64,000 nucleotides of DNA, taken from positions 31,682,001 through 31,746,000 of the forward strand of contig OZ287757.1 of assembly GCA_965649765.1 (NCBI GenBank). The letters run 5' to 3'. The notes under the pieces are model-generated. The model was not told where the DNA came from. It searched no databases and was given only the letters and a program-made list of their open reading frames with translations. The first letter of the stretch is position 1. Each line of letters begins with the position of its first letter. A program made the translations under genes and the position numbers. The DNA comes from Bispira polyomma (taxonomy: Eukaryota). Positions 3,979 through 59,400 of the stretch are shown here, one piece after another.

Positions 3979-5028
3979 ATGCCTAAAGTCAAGGTATACG
4001 GTTGTACCAAATGTGGTACTCAGCACGCCCGTCCGGTAGGCAGCAAATGTCAGGTCGTGTTATCAGAGGAAGTAGCTATTGAAGAAATTCCATCGGATGA
4101 AGAGACTATCGACACCAGTTCGGTTGGTGCTGACAGTCTGGCCGTAGTTTCCGGGCAAATACTATCACAGTTACAGGCCATGGGCCAGTTAATGGAGAAA
4201 CTAGACAAGCGAGTTTCTGCAACCGAAACGACTCTTGCAGCCGCCAACTGTGTCGGCACTGCTAACACACAGGCTAAGTCAGATACTGCTTCCAGCACCG
4301 CTTCCACCAGTTTGAGTGGGGAGAGCACAGCGAATAGTGAAAATATTGTGGTACCAAGTGTACAGTTTCTTAAGCAGAATAACAACATTCAAAACCAAGT
4401 CGAGTTAAGACTCGCCGAGCTCAAGCAGTTAAATGAAAACTCGGTGAAAGGTAAGATTAAATCACAAAGGAGGGGAGGTGTTGACGTCATAGTAAAGTGC
4501 GTGGTGGAATGGCCTCAAAATCATGTCCTATCCGGGAACTTTAAGGCAAGACCGTCTTACGATGACTTAACTTTAAATCAGTGGGTCTGCGGATTCACAC
4601 GCATAATACAGGACAAAAAATCTCCCGAAACCAAAGAGATCATGCTCGATTACATGGCTGGATTAATGGAGGACTCCCAGGATTTTTCCTGGGAGGCCGC
4701 CAAAGCATGTCACACGGTTGTATTAACAACTATGGAGATGGATAAGCTTAATTGGAGCGACGTCGACAAACTTGACTGGCTTAGGCGGGCACACGCTCAA
4801 AGGCATGTCTCTGGCAGTGGTGGTTTACAGGGTTCACTTGCGAAAGGCGTAGGAAAAAATCAAACCTTTAGTAAGTCCACGACAGCTAATTGTAAATTTT
4901 TTCAGGATGGCTCTTGTAAATACCCATCCAGTCATAAGACAGGCACCACTTTTTTCAAGCACGTGTGTGAAACCTGGTCTGGAACTCATAAAACCACAAA
5001 CTGCAGTAAAAAAGCAGCAAAAAACTAA
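3979..5028 (+). CDS. Gag-like ORF1 of YR-C (intact)
   Basis: N-terminal CxxCxxxHxRPxGxxC knuckle, coiled coil, WPQNHV/YDDL/QWVCGF core and C-terminal Cys/His fingers. Homologous to the other gag copies. Confidence 0.88.
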   Translation: MPKVKVYGCTKCGTQHARPVGSKCQVVLSEEVAIEEIPSDEETIDTSSVGADSLAVVSGQILSQLQAMGQLMEKLDKRVSATETTLAAANCVGTANTQAKSDTASSTASTSLSGESTANSENIVVPSVQFLKQNNNIQNQVELRLAELKQLNENSVKGKIKSQRRGGVDVIVKCVVEWPQNHVLSGNFKARPSYDDLTLNQWVCGFTRIIQDKKSPETKEIMLDYMAGLMEDSQDFSWEAAKACHTVVLTTMEMDKLNWSDVDKLDWLRRAHAQRHVSGSGGLQGSLAKGVGKNQTFSKSTTANCKFFQDGSCKYPSSHKTGTTFFKHVCETWSGTHKTTNCSKKAAKN

Positions 5029-5053
5029 GGGGCCACTGCAGAAATGCAGTGGC
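5019..5053 (+). promoter_or_regulatory. Predicted -1 ribosomal frameshift signal at the gag-pol junction
   Basis: In-phase A_AAA_AAC (5019-5025), 6-nt spacer, hairpin gccactgca-GAAA-tgcagtggc (5032-5053). The -1 frame is the pol-homologous ORF 5049-5480. Confidence 0.8.
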
Positions 5054-7032
5054 TGAAAATCTGGTTTATAGTGGGCAGTTTTACAGGACTGACTTCCAGG
5101 ACTTCCATTTGTTCAGCAGACCTTTTAGTACGGATTCAGTTAGAAAACTTAAGGCCATTGCTGATGTGGTGGATCCTTGTGAAAGTATCGAGACTGAAAG
5201 CAATACAAATAATATTGAAACTGACAAATATGCGTTTGAGTTAAAACAAAAGGCAAATAAGAGGGAACTCCTGGATAAAGCAAAAAACTGTAAACCTAAT
5301 TGTGCTTGGCGTGCTCAAAACAGAGTGGCCTATGGCTTCACACCACTGTCAGACTTGGGCTGCAGGGTGTGGGACCATGGCTCAACAAATTATAGCTCTG
5401 ATATTCTTAGAATGCATAAATTACTCCGCCAGGATGGCAAACAAAACTTTAAAGGGTTGCAATTACCGGTTACTTCTTAGTTAAAACCCGAAAAGTGAGC
5501 TCAGTACCTCGAGAATTACTGGGAATGGCAGTCACCGTTACTTATTAAATATGGCTTCCCCCTGGATGTCAATCGTGACAACATTGATCAGTCGCATGAA
5601 GAAAACCATAAATCGGCAATTGACTTTCACGAACACGTGGACACCTATTTTACGGATGAGTGTAAGTTCGGAGCAATACTGGGTCCTTTTGACAAACCCC
5701 CTATAAAGAACATGCACTTCTCTCCCATGATGAACCGTGATAAGTCTAGTTCAACCAACAGAAGGGTCATTGTAGACCTCAGTTGGTCTATTGGTCGTTC
5801 TGTTAATGCAGGGGCTTCTGTGTGCGAATATCTGGGGACAGAATTTTTGTTGTCCTATCCCTCAGTTGATAATGTAACTAGGGAAGTGGCAGAGCTGGGC
5901 AGAGGTTGCCATATCTTTAAAGTCGATAAAAGTCGCGCATTTAGGCATGTGCCTATAGACCCTGGGGATGTGGATTTGCTTGGTCTTAAATGGGGGTCCT
6001 ATTATCTGGATAGATCATTACCGTTCGGATATCAGAATGGCTCCACTATTTTCCAGCAAATTTCTGACTCGGTAAGATACATCATGGCGCAGGAAGGCTA
6101 CCATATACAGGCTTATATCGACGATTATCTATGTGTGGCCCTTCCCAGCAAAATTGGGAAGATATATAACAGACTACAGGGTCTGCTGACGGAACTAGGT
6201 CTCACGGTCAGTCCTAAGAAACTTGTTCCCCCTAGTACTGAGGTCATTTGCTTAGGCATATAAGTAAACACTGAGACTTTTACAACGTCTATTCCAGCAG
6301 AGACGCTGGGGGAAATCAGAGCATTCTGTAAGCAGTGGGAGGGTAAGAGTACTCGTACTAAGAGAGAATTACAATCACTGCTAGGGTCCCTCCTTTACGT
6401 GTTGAAATGCATAAGATATTCTCGGGAATACTTCAACCGCATGTTGCAAACTTTAAGAGACAATCACAGCAAGAAACACTTCCCTATAACTAAGGATTTT
6501 AGGAGAGATCTTAAGTGGTTCCTCACGTTCATGCAGCAGTTCAATGGAGTCACTTTTTTTGCCCATAGACCAACTTATGCACAGGTAGAGCTAGATGCCT
6601 GCCTAACTGGGATGGGGGGCATCTATGATAACCAAGTATACAAACTTAACATTCCCTCAGACATGTCTCAGGATAACATAGCGTCCCGGAAGATGCTCCA
6701 TATTTTAGTGGCCTTAAGGCTTTGGGCTTCGTCCTGGAAGGGCAAACATGTACTTTTTAAGTGCGATAACCAGGCCGTTGTCAGCGTACTTACGCATGGG
6801 CGCACACAGGACCCACTTTTGGCCACCTATTCTCGAAATATCTATATGATTGCCAGTCAGTTTGACATTGATCTCAGAGTAATCCATATAATGGCAGTTA
6901 AAAACAAGGTGGCAGACTTGTTGTCCAGGTGGGACAAGACTAACGATAATCTCAAATTGCTGCATGAATGGGTGGGACCAGTAGTATGGACCCACACATG
7001 CAGACCTCTTAAAGATCGACAAAAGTATATAA
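5025..7032 (+). pseudogene. RT/RNase H (pol) of YR-C, disrupted
   Basis: YGFPLD, PFG, YIDD, LDAC, KCDN and ADLLSR motifs with in-frame stops (5478, 6261) and small indels. Confidence 0.9.
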
Positions 7033-7065
7033 TATTTAAAGATTGTTATTTATATTTTGTGTCAG

Positions 7066-7845
7066 GTTCGAGTCCAGCGGGTGCACTGCTTACCAAGTTA
7101 GCTTGTGACAGATTGCATTCAGCCTTTGCTGCGTCCACGTGGAAGGCCTACAGCAGTATGTTCAGGCTCTTTCTGGCCTTTAACATTTTCATGGACTGGC
7201 AGATAAATCAGGGGAATGCGTCCCAATTACATGCTTACTTGGAGTTCCTCAATTTTAACAGCGTCACCCCTTCCCAGATATCTAACTACTTGGCAGCTAT
7301 TAAGGCCAAGTTTTCCAATTAAAAACTGAGGTGTTCTCGGACGCCAGAATTGCCTGTTACACAAAGGCCTTATTGGTAAATAGACCTCTTAAAGTGAAAT
7401 TAAAAAGTTTATTTGACATTCCCCTGCTCTTGAACCTTATTCAGAAATGTGACTGTACATACATGGGGCAAATTTTTAAGGCTGTATATCCCACCAGTTG
7501 CTTTCTAAGACTTTCTAATCTGTGCCCACATTCGGTGGCTGCATTTTCCCCTTTGAAACATTTGGCCAGGGGGGACGTCATGTTTAAACCTGGTTATGTC
7601 ATACTGTTAATGAAATGGGCTAAAACAATGCAGAAAAGAGATTCAGTTAGGCTGCTTTTCCTTCCTGCCCTCCCAGGTTCGAGTTTATGTCCGGTTAAGG
7701 CTATCAAGGCAGCTTTGGCTCTTGCCCCCCTGGCCCTAATGCTCCCCTCTTCCAGTACAAACTACACTCCACCTGGATTCCCCTTACTGATTCACATGTT
7801 CGTAGCCATTTAAAAAACCTCCTTCACTTGTTAAAATTGCAAACT
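7066..7845 (+). pseudogene. Tyrosine recombinase of YR-C, frameshifted and C-terminally deleted
   Basis: LHSAFAAST...FLRLSNLCPHS...KWAKT homology to 27476-28461. The HxxR/Y region is missing. Confidence 0.85.
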
Positions 7846-12190: not shown

Positions 12191-15100
12191 TGACCAGCAA
12201 GCATACTTTAGGGGGCTGATGTGTCATTTCCAAAAACACATCTTTTGAACTATTTTTGTTACACACTCTGTCCATTATGAACTGGACACTGACCATAAGC
12301 ATTTTACACACCTCCCTCAATTAGGTTGTGTCCCCTAACATACAATCTGCCATTTTAACCCCAGCAAGACAAGGGTAAACACGAGAATAGCAAATGTGTT
12401 GAAAAAGGATTATTTTATATTTTATGAACTTGTTCAGCGTTTTTATATTGTTTTTAGTTTATGTTTGTTTTGAATATTAAATACACTTGTTCATAATACT
12501 ACCGTTATGGGACACCAGAAAGAAAACACCAGCAAGTGCTCCACAGAAGAATAAGACTACCATCGTCAAAAAATCAACCAGAGGTACTGTATCTGTCCGT
12601 TCGGATCCGGTAGTACAAAACTTAAAAATACCCCTATCTGAAGCTAGTACCAGTGGCAACCTGGACAGTCAAATGCTTGCCATTCTTCAGCATCTGGAGA
12701 CGGCCAATGTAGAAATAAACAGGCAGCTAGACCGAGTAGAGGCCAGAGGGACCCATAACTCCACACCGCTTGCGTCACCGAGTAGTCCCTACAATGACTC
12801 ATTAGCGGATCTGCGTCACCAGAATGTTCCCATTCAGACGACACACGTTCCTACTAACCCGACGATTCAACCAGTCACCAATTAACGGACATCAACGCTA
12901 CTTGGTCAAGACTACCCACGGGTGGATATTCTACACAACCTTCTTGAAATTACCGCTGCCATTAACTTGCGACTAGCAGAATATGACACTCGATATGCAC
13001 ATGACCTTGCTGAAGGTAAGACAACCACCAGACTAAAGTTGTGTAGATACAATTCTACTGATGTATGTTTAGCCGAGCCCCAGTTAAGATGGCCCAATGA
13101 GGGCTGGGTTAGAGGTACAGCCCATAAGAAAATGCAATTTGACGAGCTGTCTTTATCACAGTGGGCAGCTGGCCAGTTGGGCAACGTAGTCCAGGCAACA
13201 GAATGTATTTCAGTAATGAAATTTATGTTAAACCAGATGATCTACACCTTGAGAGACTCACACACTCTGCCCTGGCCAGCGGTTTGAACTATGTGGGGCC
13301 ATAATATGCAAGAGATAGAGGAAGGAAGACTTGACTGTTCCAATACCACACAATGGGCCCTGAATCGCCTTAGCTTATAATAACTGGCTCTGGTAAATGG
13401 CCATTCCTAGCACACCTCGTTGAATCAGTAGAAGGCCAAGGTTATCTGTAAATACTTCAACAGCGGTTCGTGTAGTCACGACGGTGATTGTAGTCAATAC
13501 AAGCATCATTACTCATATTGTTTTAAAGTGATAAACAAGGAAAATATTTACCCTGAGTTTAAATGTCTGAAAGACAACTCTTCAAACACTAAGTCTGGCA
13601 GCTAGGATGGAGGTTGACGACCAAGTACAGTTGTTAACAATGTTAATTGTAGTAGAGATATCAAAGTCGTGAATTTAAAAGTATGTAAGAATATTAAAAA
13701 CAGAAACAGCATAGTTCATGCAGTTAATTCAGGCAATAGTAAAAAGATAAATAATAGTCAAGAAAATATTGAAATTAATGTGATTACTAATGTCAACTCG
13801 CCTGTTATTGGAAAACATGACGACATTATTGCAGAGCAGGGTGAGCAAAAAAGTCATAACGTATACCAAAATGGGGGTCATTATAATTCTTATTAGTCAA
13901 ATTTGAATTACAAAAATTTCAATAATGCACCCATGTATTTTGGTACATGGAACTTAGTCTGCAAAATGTCAGTCATGAACTTTGAATATGTGACAATCAA
14001 CCAGTAGTTTATTAACATGTGGCAGATTACACAGAAATTTTAGGTTTTTACTGTGAAAGTTATAACTCATTTTCCAACAACTCCACTTATACTCCACCTG
14101 GGGTAATAGCCAGTTTTCCTTTTGGGGTTTCTTACACACTCAATACTAGAGTCAATATTGACTATAACTCAGTAAGAATGAAATCTCTTAACAAAATTCA
14201 AATTATGTATGCAAAATTGTCCCACGATAACCACAGTAGGGACCTGGAATGCCATAATTTATTTAGTCATGATTATACCACATATATGCAGCATGTTAGT
14301 GACTGTATTATTGAACAGGATGATTTAAATACTAAGAAATCGAAAATACTTTGGAAGACAAGTAAATATCAAAGTGTAAGTATGCTCGAACGTGCATCTG
14401 TCAACATAAGTGACGCCGTGATCCAGTCAGTGGGCTCAACCTCGCTCTCCGAATGTTCTCGAAAAAAATGCTTTCATTAAGGACATTTGTGATCCCAACA
14501 TAACAGTAGGTTTCATAAAACTTTCAAATAAGGAATTCCACATCACTGGACCTGACAGTGATTCAGTTACAGTTGACTCATTTAACACCATGTGCGGTAT
14601 TGCTGACACAATAAGGTCAACAGGGGTGCCCAATTACAAGCTAGAATTCCCATTACGTGTGGTTTAAACTTAGAAGCGTGGAAGAATATTATGCGTGGTC
14701 ACCATGCGCGTCGACCCAGTAGTCCAATTTGGCATAAAATGGGATGACAAATATTACCTGGATCCGGTGGTGGCGTTTCGCTGGGCCCACGGCAGTGCAG
14801 CCTTCCAGCGATGTTCTGACATAATAGCTGACCACATGAAGAAACTAGGTTACACTTTACACTGCTACATAGATGATTATCTTTGCGCATGCCCAAGGGA
14901 CGGAGCCAAGGAAGGCTTTGCTAAATTGTGTGATCTGTTAAATGACTTAGGTCTTCCTATAAACCCAGGTAAACTCCCCCCCCCCTCTACTGAGGTAACA
15001 CAATAAGCATTACCAAAGAAAAAATACAACTGATATACACAGACTGCATTGAAGCTCGTAGTATAGTCTGTCTTTCCTGTACACTGCTCCAATCAGTATG

Positions 15101-23861: not shown

Positions 23862-24880
23862 ATGCCTCCACTTGTTAATTGCTCCAAATGTTTGGGAAAG
23901 CATGCCCGTCCGGTAGGGGCGGGTTGTTTGTATACTGGGGAGGTTTCACAAGCTTCTGCCGAGGCCCTCGCCGAGGAGGAGGACACGTCTGATGCCATAG
24001 CTCTGGAAGGTAATGTGGACCAAATTAATAGTCAGATTTTGCTCCAGTTACAGTCCATGAGCAATATGATGGAAAGAATGGATCGGCGTGTCCAACTCAC
24101 GGAGGCGGCATTGGCGGGAGAACGAGCTCAAAATCAGGCTAGTACTTCTATTACCAGTAATGTCCCGCCAGTCATTGATACTGTAGTTGCTGCGAGTGCA
24201 CCCGAAAGTGTAGTGCCCACCATAGATTTCTTGAAAACTAATGCACAGATTCAGACACAGGTCGAATTGCGTTTGGCAGATCTAAAACGGTTGAATGAAG
24301 GCCCCACCCAAGGTAAATTGAAATCCCAAAGGGGGGGGGGGGGGTTGATGTTATAGTAAAACGGATAGTTGAATGGCCTCAGAATCATGTACTTACAGGC
24401 ACTGCTCGTTCTAGGCCTACATATGATGACTTGTCGATGAGTCAATGGGTGTGTGGTTTCCTGCGAATTGTGCAAGCTGAAAAGTCAGAGTCCATAAGGG
24501 AAACCATGCTTGAATACATGGCGAACCTGATGGAGGATTCGGAGGACTTTTCGTGGGAAGCTGCCAAAGCGTGCCATGCGGTAGTCCTTACCCACATGGA
24601 AATGGACAAGCTATCTTGGACACAAGTCGACAAACTCGACAGGCTCCGAAGAGCACACGCCCAGCGTCACGTCTCAAACTCTAATTCAAGTCACAGTTAC
24701 TTTGGTCGGGCCGGGGCCAGAAATAGTACCTCGGCCAGTAAGCAGGGCACAGCCAATTGTAAATTCTTCCAGGATGGCTCATGTAAATTTCCAAACAGCC
24801 ACAAAACGGGCAACACATATTTTAAGCATGTCTGTGATTCGTGTGGGGGCACACACAAAACCAGTAGTTGTAACAAAAAA
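23862..24880 (+). CDS. Gag-like ORF1 of YR-E, with one frameshift in a G14 run (24331-24344)
   Basis: ORFs 23862-24356 and 24431-24964 together align with the intact gag 3979-5028. Confidence 0.85.
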
Positions 24881-24900
24881 GTGCCCACTGCAGCAATGCA

Positions 24901-50693: not shown

Positions 50694-51901
50694 CTATTGA
50701 GGGGCGTTCACGGGCACATTTGGGCGGCCGTGTAACTTGAAGCATTTTGACTCGGGGTGTGGGTTCAATCTCTTGTTGAGTCGGAAACAGTTGGCACAGA
50801 TATGTCGAAATGTAATGTTATTGCCCTCATGATCTTTCTGGTGTTGGCAGTCATTTTTTTGGTAACGTCTGCAAGGCATTTCATTTTTGTTTGAAGATGA
50901 AGCAGACAACGAACTGGTCGAAGGTGTGGTAGTACTGGATATGAGGGCTTGAGAATAAGAAAGCCGATTCATATTCCATTTTGTGTCATTGGTCCAACTC
51001 AAATGACCCTCTTCAATATTATGCATATTGCTGGCATATGCACCACGAGCAATCTCCCAGGAGATGTTGGAGGCATCTTTGAGGGTGTCTGCTAGTTGGG
51101 AGAGCATGGCTCGTGAAATATCAGGATTCTTAGCCTCAAGAATATTTTGGATCTGGCCAGCAGCGAACTGTGAGACTGACAATTCATCAAAAGAGACACA
51201 CTTTTTGTTAATACCAGATAAGCAAGCCTCGTTCGGCCACCGCTTCATGGGGTCAGATACACATAACTCAGATCTATTATAGCGCCCAGATTTTCGCTTG
51301 GTAGTGAGCTTACCTTGAATGCTCTCATCTGTGGCCCAGGTTTCATATCTTGCTAGTCGTTGGGAGACCTCATTCTGTATGAGAGACGACTGCTTCAGAA
51401 CTTCGGGAGTCGGGAGAATGGTATCTTTGAAAACTCGTTGAGTGGCTTTGTGGTCATACCGGCTCTGTGAACTAGTGAGGTGACGTGAGGGAGAATCTGT
51501 AGCGAGAGGATGTGTCGCGAACGCGCTGGCAGTGTGATTGCTCTGACTGTCATAAAGACCTACCGAAGTGTGAGGATCTCGGGGTGCGTTATGAGGAAGT
51601 ACACGGTTGGTCTCCAACTTTCCAGATTTGAGATCTGAGACGTCTTCTTGTAGCTTGGAAACTGTAGATAACAGGGTTTCCATCATATTCTGCTGTGTGG
51701 AGTATGCCTCACGATAGAATTTTTTACTGCTAACTTGGCCACTTACATCAGAAATACTGCTTTGATCATCACTGTTAAAGGCTCATCATCTCTTGTGTCT
51801 GTGGTTCGTTTGCAGCGATTTCCTACTGGTCGTGTGTGAAAGATTTCACATCTAGTACATGAAGCTGTTTCAATAGAGTTTTTTTTTTTACCTCTACCCA
51901 T
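50694..51901 (-). CDS. Gag-like ORF1 of YR-F (330 aa open; 5' part disrupted)
   Basis: KSGRYN...WPNE...FDELS core and C-terminal Cys/His fingers. Confidence 0.8.
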
Positions 51902-56470: not shown

Positions 56471-59400
56471 AGAAGGATTTGCGTACTAAAGTAGCACACC
56501 CAAGTCAGTCTTAGGGAAAGCTTAAACATTTAATTAGTTACATTTGGCCTAGTTGGCCTAATTCTTACAATACAGAGTAAAAAATATAGGCAGACAGAAA
56601 AGGTGACCTTGCCAGTACACCACCTCCAAAGCAAGGCTTAAAATAGCCAAAACTTTCCTATGCATGGTTTGGGCCTGAGTTGTTCAAGCACATGGTGGCT
56701 GTCTGCCTCTTTGTGATTTTAAATACTCCCCACATGTGGGCTGATAGTCAGTTGTAAAGTAGAAGCTGAATGGGGCTGAGTGCCATATTGGAAGGGACTT
56801 CTGTTTGCTTGACTAAAAAGGAAATCCAATTTTACTAATTTGATACTTCTTTTCTGAAATAAATTTCAAGTCAAGCCAGCAAAAGTCCGCCAGGTTATTA
56901 TTCTTGCAGGATGGGCCAGAAACCAGTTTTAACAAAAACAACCAGAAACAATAATAAGAGTACTGCAGAAAGGAGTGAAATTGTGAATGAGTCTGATAAA
57001 AATAGTTTACCGATAAATGGTGCCGTGGGAGGTACTACAGAGACAAATGACAAATTATCTGAGTTACAAAATAAATCTGTGTCAGACAAGCTTGATGAAC
57101 TGTTATCAGTAGTGAAAGTTATGGGGTCGCAGATTAAGTACCAGGACGAGCGCTTACGTCGGCAAGAGGACAGAGTCAGTTTGCAAAACATTTCCACTGT
57201 GCCATCTGCCCAAAGCTTGCCTAAAGCTACGGGTCAGAAGACGGACGCTAGAGAAGGTGAGGAAAAGAGCAATCCCAAGCTGCCTTCGTTTGAAGTCCTA
57301 GAGAGCGACTCCCACATACAGGCTAAAGTTCACAAGCGGCTGCAGCAGTACGACGGTGCATCATACCTGGAGAGTAAAGGTAAAAATGTTACTACCTTAA
57401 ATCTGGTCGCTTCCGAGCGGGTATACACAAAGTAAAAGTTCAAGTTAATTGGCCCCAAGATTATTGTACAGTGGCACATGCACATAAGCAGCCCACCTAT
57501 GATGATATGTCTCCCATTCAATGGGCATAGGCCTACTTTGTTGTGCACTTGAGGAAGGTAACCTTCAATACAGGCAAGTAATGTTTAGTTATTATCACAG
57601 TCTAATGCAGGACGCAGTGGAATTAGGGGTTGAAACTGCTAAAAGCACAGAAACCAGGGTTTGTTCGCTTTTTAATAAAGCATCTTGTGAGCTAGAGAAA
57701 GATCATATTACAAAGGAGGCTAAGTACGAGCATTATTGCACTTACTGCTATAAGGAATCACGTGGCAAGAAACATGACCACCCAGCGTGTAAATTCGTGC
57801 ACATGAAGAATGATAATAAGGACACAAATAAGGACACAAAGAAGGAACAGCGAGTTTAACCCATCAAGGTGTAAAGTGCTTACTGGCTATAACGGTGTAA
57901 GTTTTACAAATGCTTATAACCTAAAAAGCAACGACACTTGTGAAGTTGGTACTAATGTGCATGAAGGTAATAATAATAATACATATAAAAGCAACAGGTA
58001 CACTCGACCTGATACAGAAACTGATATATTGAAATTTAATAATAAAAAACGTGTTCAGCTTAATCCTGCAGCTGAAATATTTATTCCAAACACAGATGGT
58101 GTAATTAATATTGGGTTACAGCTTAATGATATTAATATTAATGCTTATACCTATTCATGTATTAGTACTAACAATATCAATTTCACCCGAGGTTTGCACG
58201 CTGTTGATAATGATTTAGTTGATACTTGGCTACAGCTTACTAACCAAAGTATTAATGTCTGTGCCTATTCATGTATCAATAATGGTGATCACGAGTCAAG
58301 ATATATGTCATATAAGGACAGTACAAGTAATTTTGCACACAAGAATAATGACAGCAAAAATGTTGGTAGTGAATCAGATATTAGTAGTGGCGATAATGTC
58401 TTTACAATAAGTAACAGCTATGTTGAATTAAACAGAAAAGCTTGGTGTACAAAAGCTGAAAATAGCATGTGTAATAATAAAACCATAATGAGTACTAGTG
58501 GCCATACACAAAGTAGGGCTTATAGCTCTCTCACAAACAATATTAGTAATAGTATTGAAAATAGTATGGGCAATGTTTACAAATACAATGGTGGCAGAGA
58601 AACCATAAGGTCCTTATTGGTCTACTGCATGTGTTATCTTGCACATAACGCAATAACTCAGTGCTGGATGTATACCGCGGCTTGCAACTCTAATGGGAGT
58701 CATATGCCTTGCTCAATACTTGATTCATCACTGAAGGATTATCAAGGACCATATGGCTCTCCAATCAAATGTGAAATCTGTTTAAGGACTAAGTGGTTTA
58801 ACTGTAATGATTGTATACGGGAAATTGACAGTCTTGCAAATAGCAGCTTGCATAACGTCCCCAAAACATACAATGGTACAACTACAGATATGCTTGTAAT
58901 GGAAAGTAACGGGTTCAAGCAATTTAATTATAGTGAAACATATAAGGGATTGAATACTTATACACGGGGAATGGATGGCTTTACAAAGTACAGTAAGTGT
59001 CATAATGTCCTCACAGTGTCTAATAATTCAAATGTATGTACATGTGTTACTAAAATACACCCACTTATAGGGGCAAATTGTAGTAACTGTCACAATGGTA
59101 TAAAACATACATGGGGAATGGATGGCTTTACAGAATGTGGTAAATATCATAATGTCCTCAATGTGTATGAGGATTTATATACAGACGTACGTGTAACAGA
59201 CCAAGATTGTTTCACAGAACTAAATTCTAATGAAAGTTATAATGTTTTCATCATAAGTAATAGTGATCATAACGTCCACCCAGTGTATAATGATGCTACT
59301 GATGGGATGCACGTGCATAATGAGCTCCTATGCAATAGTGGTATTCATAATAGCACAATGGGTAAATATAACAGTGGTTCATATATTGCTAAACACGTGA

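Follow-up and report, generated by a model that had tools for sequence, protein, structure and literature searches.

A candidate programmed −1 frameshift signal at the gag/pol junction of Ngaro-type retroelements in the genome of Bispira polyomma

Tyrosine-recombinase retroelements in the window

The stretch of DNA analysed here (the window; 64 kb in length, within a 1.04-Gb assembly of Bispira polyomma) contains the remains of approximately ten tyrosine-recombinase (YR) retroelements. Several of these lie end to end across positions 1–64000, which insertion into each other's repeats may explain. The ORFs of the elements follow the Ngaro order, i.e., Gag-like, reverse transcriptase (RT)/RNase H and tyrosine recombinase. 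In Pfam searches with the pol of sibling copies (copy E and locus L151), RT scored above the cut-off and RNase H weakly, below the cut-off, while the third ORF matched phage-integrase families, with the YR catalytic domain falling below the cut-off and the YR SAM-like domain just above it. Gag had no Pfam match above the cut-off, no protease domain was found in the Pfam search of the element ORFs, and Pfam gave no match to a methyltransferase after RNase H, with pol ending approximately 40 residues past that domain. Split direct repeats (A1...B1 A2 B2) were found in 5 of 20 10-kb loci (L151, L152, L160, L164 and L167) and are known from those sibling loci, not from the window copy itself; the gap between A2 and B2 in the repeat-bearing loci is 0.6 to 0.9 kb. 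In L151, the stretch of approximately 0.7 kb between A2 and B2 (6865–7590) holds no ORF of more than 70 codons.

A DIRS1-like assignment was rejected, as the terminal repeats are direct rather than inverted and a methyltransferase domain is absent. PAT-like elements combine split direct repeats with a DIRS1-like, methyltransferase-bearing pol; compared by description, the elements studied here fit in their split direct repeats and have no methyltransferase. Set against published descriptions of Ngaro elements, of which excerpts were used (PMC9210276, PMC3783388 and PMC3266345), ORF order, repeats and the absent methyltransferase fit a Ngaro-type host. Likenesses are the gag, RT/RNase H and YR ORFs, the split direct repeats of the form A...B A B and the lack of a methyltransferase. 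Unlike in Ngaro, approximately 0.7 kb parts A2 from B2, and a hydrolase ORF is absent here. The route of pol translation is nowhere stated in the excerpts of these three papers.

The gag/pol junction of copy C and its relatives in the window

One of the elements, copy C, has a gag-like ORF at 3979–5028 on the forward strand (ATG at 3979, TAA at 5026–5028), which encodes 349 residues with a C-terminal Cys/His motif and ends in K-N-stop. The seven bases before the stop form the slippery heptamer A AAA AAC (5019–5025, forward strand), in the X_XXY_YYZ phase with gag. The 6-nt spacer that follows (5026–5031), with the gag stop inside it, leads to a candidate stimulatory hairpin (5032–5053) of nine perfect pairs, 5032–5040 with 5045–5053, around a loop at 5041–5044; a G-U pair between 5031 and 5054 could lengthen it. 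The computed fold of 5026–5085 has −22 kcal/mol with a z of −3.65, and 1 of 200 shuffles was equally good. Pol (RT and RNase H, domains inferred from copy E and L151) lies in the −1 frame at 5010–6989 of the same strand and is broken in this copy. A TAA at 5007–5009 closes the −1 frame upstream, and the frame is then open over 5010–5477, with pol homology from 5220 and a gag/pol overlap of 19 nt. Any shift is therefore confined to 5010–5025. A preliminary description of this DNA had proposed the heptamer directly before the gag stop, the 6-nt spacer with its perfect stem and the −1 entry into pol, and for all of these its coordinates hold.

Copy C itself is decayed: a 480-nt gap relative to L002 follows position 5137, and stops interrupt pol at 5478, 5496 and 6261, so that full pol cannot come from this copy. 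Rfam gave no match in 4900–5200. AAAAAAC occurs 37 times in the window, and 0.9% of random positions are followed by a helix of at least 9 bp in the same geometry; one chance site is thus expected approximately a third of the time. A lone heptamer with a 9-bp helix is within chance, and what carries the argument is where the site lies and how well it is conserved.

Three other window copies can be compared with copy C. Copy B shares its heptamer (2516–2522), stop and 5′ arm (2529–2537), found at 2516–2537 of the forward strand as previously proposed; the 3′ arm of copy B is lost and its fold has a z of −1.1. In copy E, the hairpin (24884–24905, forward strand; seen in the sequence and in the fold) carries the terminal C-G swap that had been reported, and pol is an ORF of 859 codons with Pfam support at 24874–27453 (forward strand), −1 relative to gag. 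Heptamer and stop are deleted from copy E, and its siblings carry 15 additional bases there. In the H copy of the window (55333 region; L086), a deletion has removed the heptamer, the stop and the 5′ arm.

Conservation of the heptamer in the genome

In sets collected by DNA similarity, 25/30 C loci (an alignment read by eye), 26/30 E loci and 24/25 H loci have the heptamer at the junction, each set being the best 25 to 30 of approximately 40 listed matches; the E-family count bears out the deletion that had been suspected in copy E. Another two sets were assembled without regard to the heptamer. A DNA pattern for the zinc finger had 91 matches in all, and the 40 outside the earlier sets were examined: 34 of these have the heptamer, 20 with it in phase directly before the stop, and in most of the other loci the phase is broken by adjacent indels or an upstream stop intervenes. 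A foreign Gag protein gave 103 matches, of which 60 were examined; this set, chosen by Gag similarity, has an in-phase heptamer in 52/60 loci, a one-base variant in 4 and none in 4, with a small bias from the terminal K-N-E contained in the Gag protein queries. Since copies and clusters are related, these counts are not independent and carry no formal p-value.

Four near-identical, full-length loci (L151–L154; 99.6–99.7%) have an intact gag, an 840-codon pol and a 333-codon YR ORF, with pol in the −1 frame overlapping gag by 16 nt at the heptamer. Young copies are also where the preliminary description had proposed to look for a failure of heptamer, stem and frame offset to be conserved; we looked there, and L151–L154 are intact. 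By contrast with the heptamer and spacer, which are kept, the position of the gag stop varies: it stands 0, 1 or 7–8 codons past the heptamer, giving K-N-stop, K-N-E-stop or a stop inside the stem. This free stop position argues against stop-coupled reinitiation.

In the copies of one subfamily (L112, L132, L133, L138, L142 and L145), the gag stop lies two codons upstream of the heptamer, and in most of them a second slippery-like A-run, in frame with pol, abuts the early stop; these copies may have a tandem shift site or represent a non-autonomous branch. The junctions of three unrelated copies (L126, L263 and L051) are broken by a short low-complexity T-rich stretch. Two of these insertions start alike, and a small insertion element is possibly involved.

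The downstream structure

When grouped by their flanks, 155 heptamer-bearing junctions form 33 clusters (17 multi-copy clusters and 16 singletons). A stem that starts 4–9 nt past the heptamer is present in 16/17 multi-copy clusters, with at most 1 of 20 shuffles matching it. Among the singletons, 8/16 stems beat all 20 shuffles, and most of the others look decayed. The spacer measures 5–9 nt in 27/33 cluster representatives, and several cluster stems are unrelated in sequence to the stem of copy C. In one group of 8 copies (L211–L216, L228 and L229), the hairpin appears to be replaced by two crossing helices of approximately −11 and −13 kcal/mol, located 8 nt past the heptamer, which makes this a candidate pseudoknot-like structure as judged by computed folding.

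The 20 alignable stems show 14 two-sided changes, compared with 6.6 after shuffling (0 of 500) and 0–2 when slid. The pair next to the terminal one is G-C in 11 stems, C-G in 9 and broken in 0, which is better covariation than that of the terminal pair and may be a single event. The terminal G-C/C-G swap had been offered as compensatory evidence, for which it is weak, the pair being unpaired in 8/20 rows. The GNRA loop, proposed as a retained feature, is a minority form: loop sequence varies between copies, and GNRA occurs in only 40/96 copies with the CACTGC/GCAGTG core. On these loop counts and broken pairs, both were dropped as arguments for a signal. Seven of ten stem pairs (columns 18–24) are never broken, and six of these are invariant; the invariant pairs are uninformative on pairing and also fit conservation of an H-C-x-x-A-V peptide encoded by the −1 frame. 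A 9-bp hairpin would be a modest stimulator, and the shift rate may consequently be low.

Reading frames around the junction and the start of pol

In 13/17 clusters, a stop closes the −1 frame somewhere in the 8 codons that precede the heptamer. In the 12 codons from the heptamer, a stop is met in the −1 frame of 1/17 clusters, compared with 8/17 for the +1 frame. From the heptamer to the end of the locus (497–546 codons), the −1 frame is unbroken in 6/30 E and 11/25 H loci, and in the best C copy it is open for 409 codons. The earlier observation that pol has no conserved AUG extends to the genome, as the position of the first Met differs between families (approximately codon 38 in E, 41 in P, 115–131 in H and 279–295 in three C copies). 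Upstream of that first Met, pN/pS in the −1 frame is below 1 in 8/9 pairs, the other having 1.23, and in 7/9 neither of the other two frames has a lower value; the pairs were picked by hand, chiefly among copies whose −1 frame stays open over a long distance, and this selection partly explains the absent stops.

These data bear on whether pol starts at an AUG of its own, via termination-reinitiation at the gag stop or via internal initiation. An AUG within codons 1–15 of the −1 frame is present in only 3/33 clusters, and in intact C copies none occurs until the conserved pol core has begun. Such an AUG does overlap the gag stop in two clusters (L261 and the five-copy L232 group), and a Met near codon 38–41 is common to the E and P families; however, the codons before the first Met already look coding in the −1 frame, and the gag stop is free to move. 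Taken together, a separate start for pol appears very unlikely, and programmed −1 frameshifting remains the preferred reading. The overlap of the gag stop by an AUG in the pol frame takes the form AUGA in L231, L232, L235, L237, L266 and L261. Three foreign pol proteins also begin with it, and it could represent a secondary reinitiation route.

Splicing and the recombinase ORF

Copy C has tyrosine recombinase homology, broken, at 7044–7803 of the forward strand. On the same strand, we infer a candidate phase-1 splice donor in mid gag (4448–4457, cut after 4450) and a candidate U-rich phase-1 acceptor before the YR ORF (7046–7066, cut after 7065). Copy E has a phase-matched counterpart, with a candidate donor at 24312/24313 and a candidate acceptor at 27475/27476. 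In the 29 loci examined, the U-rich phase-1 acceptor occurs at one position before YR in 25 of the 26 with a YR match. A donor-like site in mid gag is present in 14/18 −1-type loci, with phase 1 in 8, and in 7/7 loci of family G; where the donor is not in phase 1, indels probably shift the count, and one site lies elsewhere. The donor/acceptor pair is conserved across the C, E, H, P and G families, suggesting that the recombinase is probably made by splicing, as a half-Gag–YR fusion.

This donor also provides the main rival to frameshifting. Pol could come from a spliced RNA in which the phase-1 mid-gag donor is joined to a phase-1 YAG within the stem's 3′ arm, yielding a half-Gag–Pol. An in-phase YAG stands 31 nt past the heptamer start in 14/17 clusters, two of them with a different stem sequence, and its junction would fuse the conserved donor to pol in frame, in elements that appear to use the same donor when splicing for YR. 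As an acceptor, however, the YAG differs from that of the recombinase: the pyrimidine fraction before it is 0.30–0.45, compared with 0.55–0.80 (U-rich) at the YR acceptor, and it lies inside the stem in most families. Moreover, an in-phase YAG is absent from the 88 nt covered in two intact clusters, one of 8 and one of 5 copies, which yet keep the heptamer and structure; a third cluster without an in-phase YAG is decayed. Splicing would, in addition, need neither ten open −1 codons before the YAG nor an in-phase heptamer. We consider it unlikely that pol is reached by splicing, and favour programmed −1 frameshifting. An acceptor-like site near 5116 was rejected as a candidate, being in the wrong phase for the gag donor and with its AG missing in most E copies.

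Gag/pol junctions of sister clades

Other families in this genome have different junctions. In family G (L061–L085; window 50694–50696, minus strand), a UAG-GG in frame with pol is present at the gag end in 25/25 loci and frame 0 is open into the pol core in 5 loci, making the UAG a candidate for type III readthrough. Family F (L171–L190; window 13603–13605), which is related to G by the Gag tree, has an in-frame UAG at the gag end in 20/20 loci. In family I (L191–L210; window 57854–57860), gag ends in GUU-UAA-(C/G); the window copy has a 580-codon ORF in the +1 frame, and this frame is open for 161–514 codons in 5 of the 8 distinct junctions among the 20 loci. The junctions of G, F and I are candidate recoding sites, and the ORFs downstream in F and I are putative pol. 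Parallels are found in the portions used of PMC3542737: gammaretroviruses and Tombusviridae have type III UAG readthrough, with UAG-G in frame also in clades G and F, and closteroviruses have a +1 shift at GUU_stop_C, with clade I having GUU UAA C and a long ORF in +1.

Gag homologues from other assemblies

Beyond this genome, the evidence is at the protein level only. The 120 Gag homologues examined come from other assemblies and share no more than 64% identity with the loci here. A zinc finger and a short tail are present in 83 of the 120, of which 59 end in K-N-x, with x mostly E or D (K-N-(E/D)-stop), and 1 ends in K-N; the remainder have K-N 3–8 residues from the end (11) or differ (12). 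The hairpin sequence appears in translation in 16/120 foreign Gags, in frame 0 in ten and in +1 in six, and 5/120 foreign pol homologues begin with its −1 reading. Among 150 more distant Gag representatives, 71 have the finger and a short tail, and 32 end in K-N or K-N-x. No relative turned up when viral and metagenome contigs were scanned with the Gag alignment. The restriction to one YR lineage that had been suggested does not stand, as the signal spans Gags approximately 45% identical in this genome as well as foreign proteins.

In a midpoint-rooted Gag tree of 24 rows, from which 4 short rows were excluded, one branch (90/86) has on one side the −1 families together with most of the foreign proteins that end in K-N, and the UAG families are grouped separately (100/99). 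Gag clades with other junction types lack the terminal K-N. This absence counts against a reading in which the hairpin serves packaging or replication and the heptamer is kept merely because Gag ends in K-N. The six invariant stem pairs would agree with another job for the hairpin, and K-N could be a protein constraint; however, from gag codon use, these exact seven bases are expected for approximately 0.065 (6.5%) of K-N pairs, and unrelated stems hold the same 4–9 nt distance. In addition, pol would be left without a translation route. We judge this explanation highly improbable, and favour programmed −1 frameshifting.

Discussion

The anatomy of the junction matches a eukaryotic −1 signal at all points, which favours programmed −1 frameshifting; these Ngaro-type elements very probably use it to produce a Gag-Pol that is itself probably uncleaved. 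On the unspliced RNA, most ribosomes would terminate at the end of Gag. A smaller fraction, delayed by the stem 5–9 nt downstream, would slip one base back on A AAA AAC through tandem slippage of tRNA-Lys and tRNA-Asn. Once shifted, these ribosomes would read on into pol, and a Gag-RT-RNase H fusion would result in a fixed proportion. As no protease was detected, the fusion would probably stay whole, and would carry RT into the Gag particle.

The −1 signals of retroviruses, totiviruses and animal LTR retrotransposons are alike in their in-phase X_XXY_YYZ, 5–9 nt spacer and 3′ stem-loop or pseudoknot, and in having pol in the −1 frame at the gag end, open from the shift site. By contrast, the overlap here is 16–22 nt, the gag stop usually lies within the spacer, and the host element is without LTRs, integrase or a detected protease. 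The gag-pro signal of MMTV has a pseudoknot, whereas most families here have a simple stem-loop. The HTLV-2 gag-pro signal, with its simple stem-loop, is a closer match. Transcriptional slippage seems unlikely for a run of six A's with a spaced stem, and was set aside. According to the portions used of PMC3542737 and PMC5009743, such anatomy drives −1 slippage in eukaryotes, and A_AAA_AAC ranks among the most shifty heptamers on mammalian ribosomes. A 2003 survey, cited in the portion used of PMC5009743, found pol in the −1 frame in 28/51 animal LTR retroelements.

The mechanism is thus textbook, and its presence in these elements is apparently new, with a prior report possible. We found no report of programmed frameshifting in DIRS-order elements in the literature searched, which comprised portions of PMC8547959, PMC3783388, PMC6681497, PMC3266345, PMC9210276, PMC7192593, PMC12477816, PMC5009743 and PMC3542737; some central literature and the Repbase notes lay outside this search.

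More tentatively, and with rather less than even confidence, we suggest that one transcript could yield three products, with Gag as the default, recoding adding an uncleaved Gag-Pol and splicing a half-Gag–recombinase, and that the recoding module may have been exchanged between clades in one genome (−1 with hairpin or pseudoknot, UAG, and +1 at GUU-UAA-C). If true, this would be a complete expression programme of Ngaro-type elements, undescribed so far.

For frameshift biology, dozens of natural variants with one slippery site and differing stimulators would provide a panel. For annotation, the −1 offset between gag and pol in these elements would be read as programmed and not as decay. If frameshifting is indeed used, it would explain how protease-less retrotransposons obtain RT from an ORF without a conserved start codon, and it predicts that their Gag-Pol is uncleaved.
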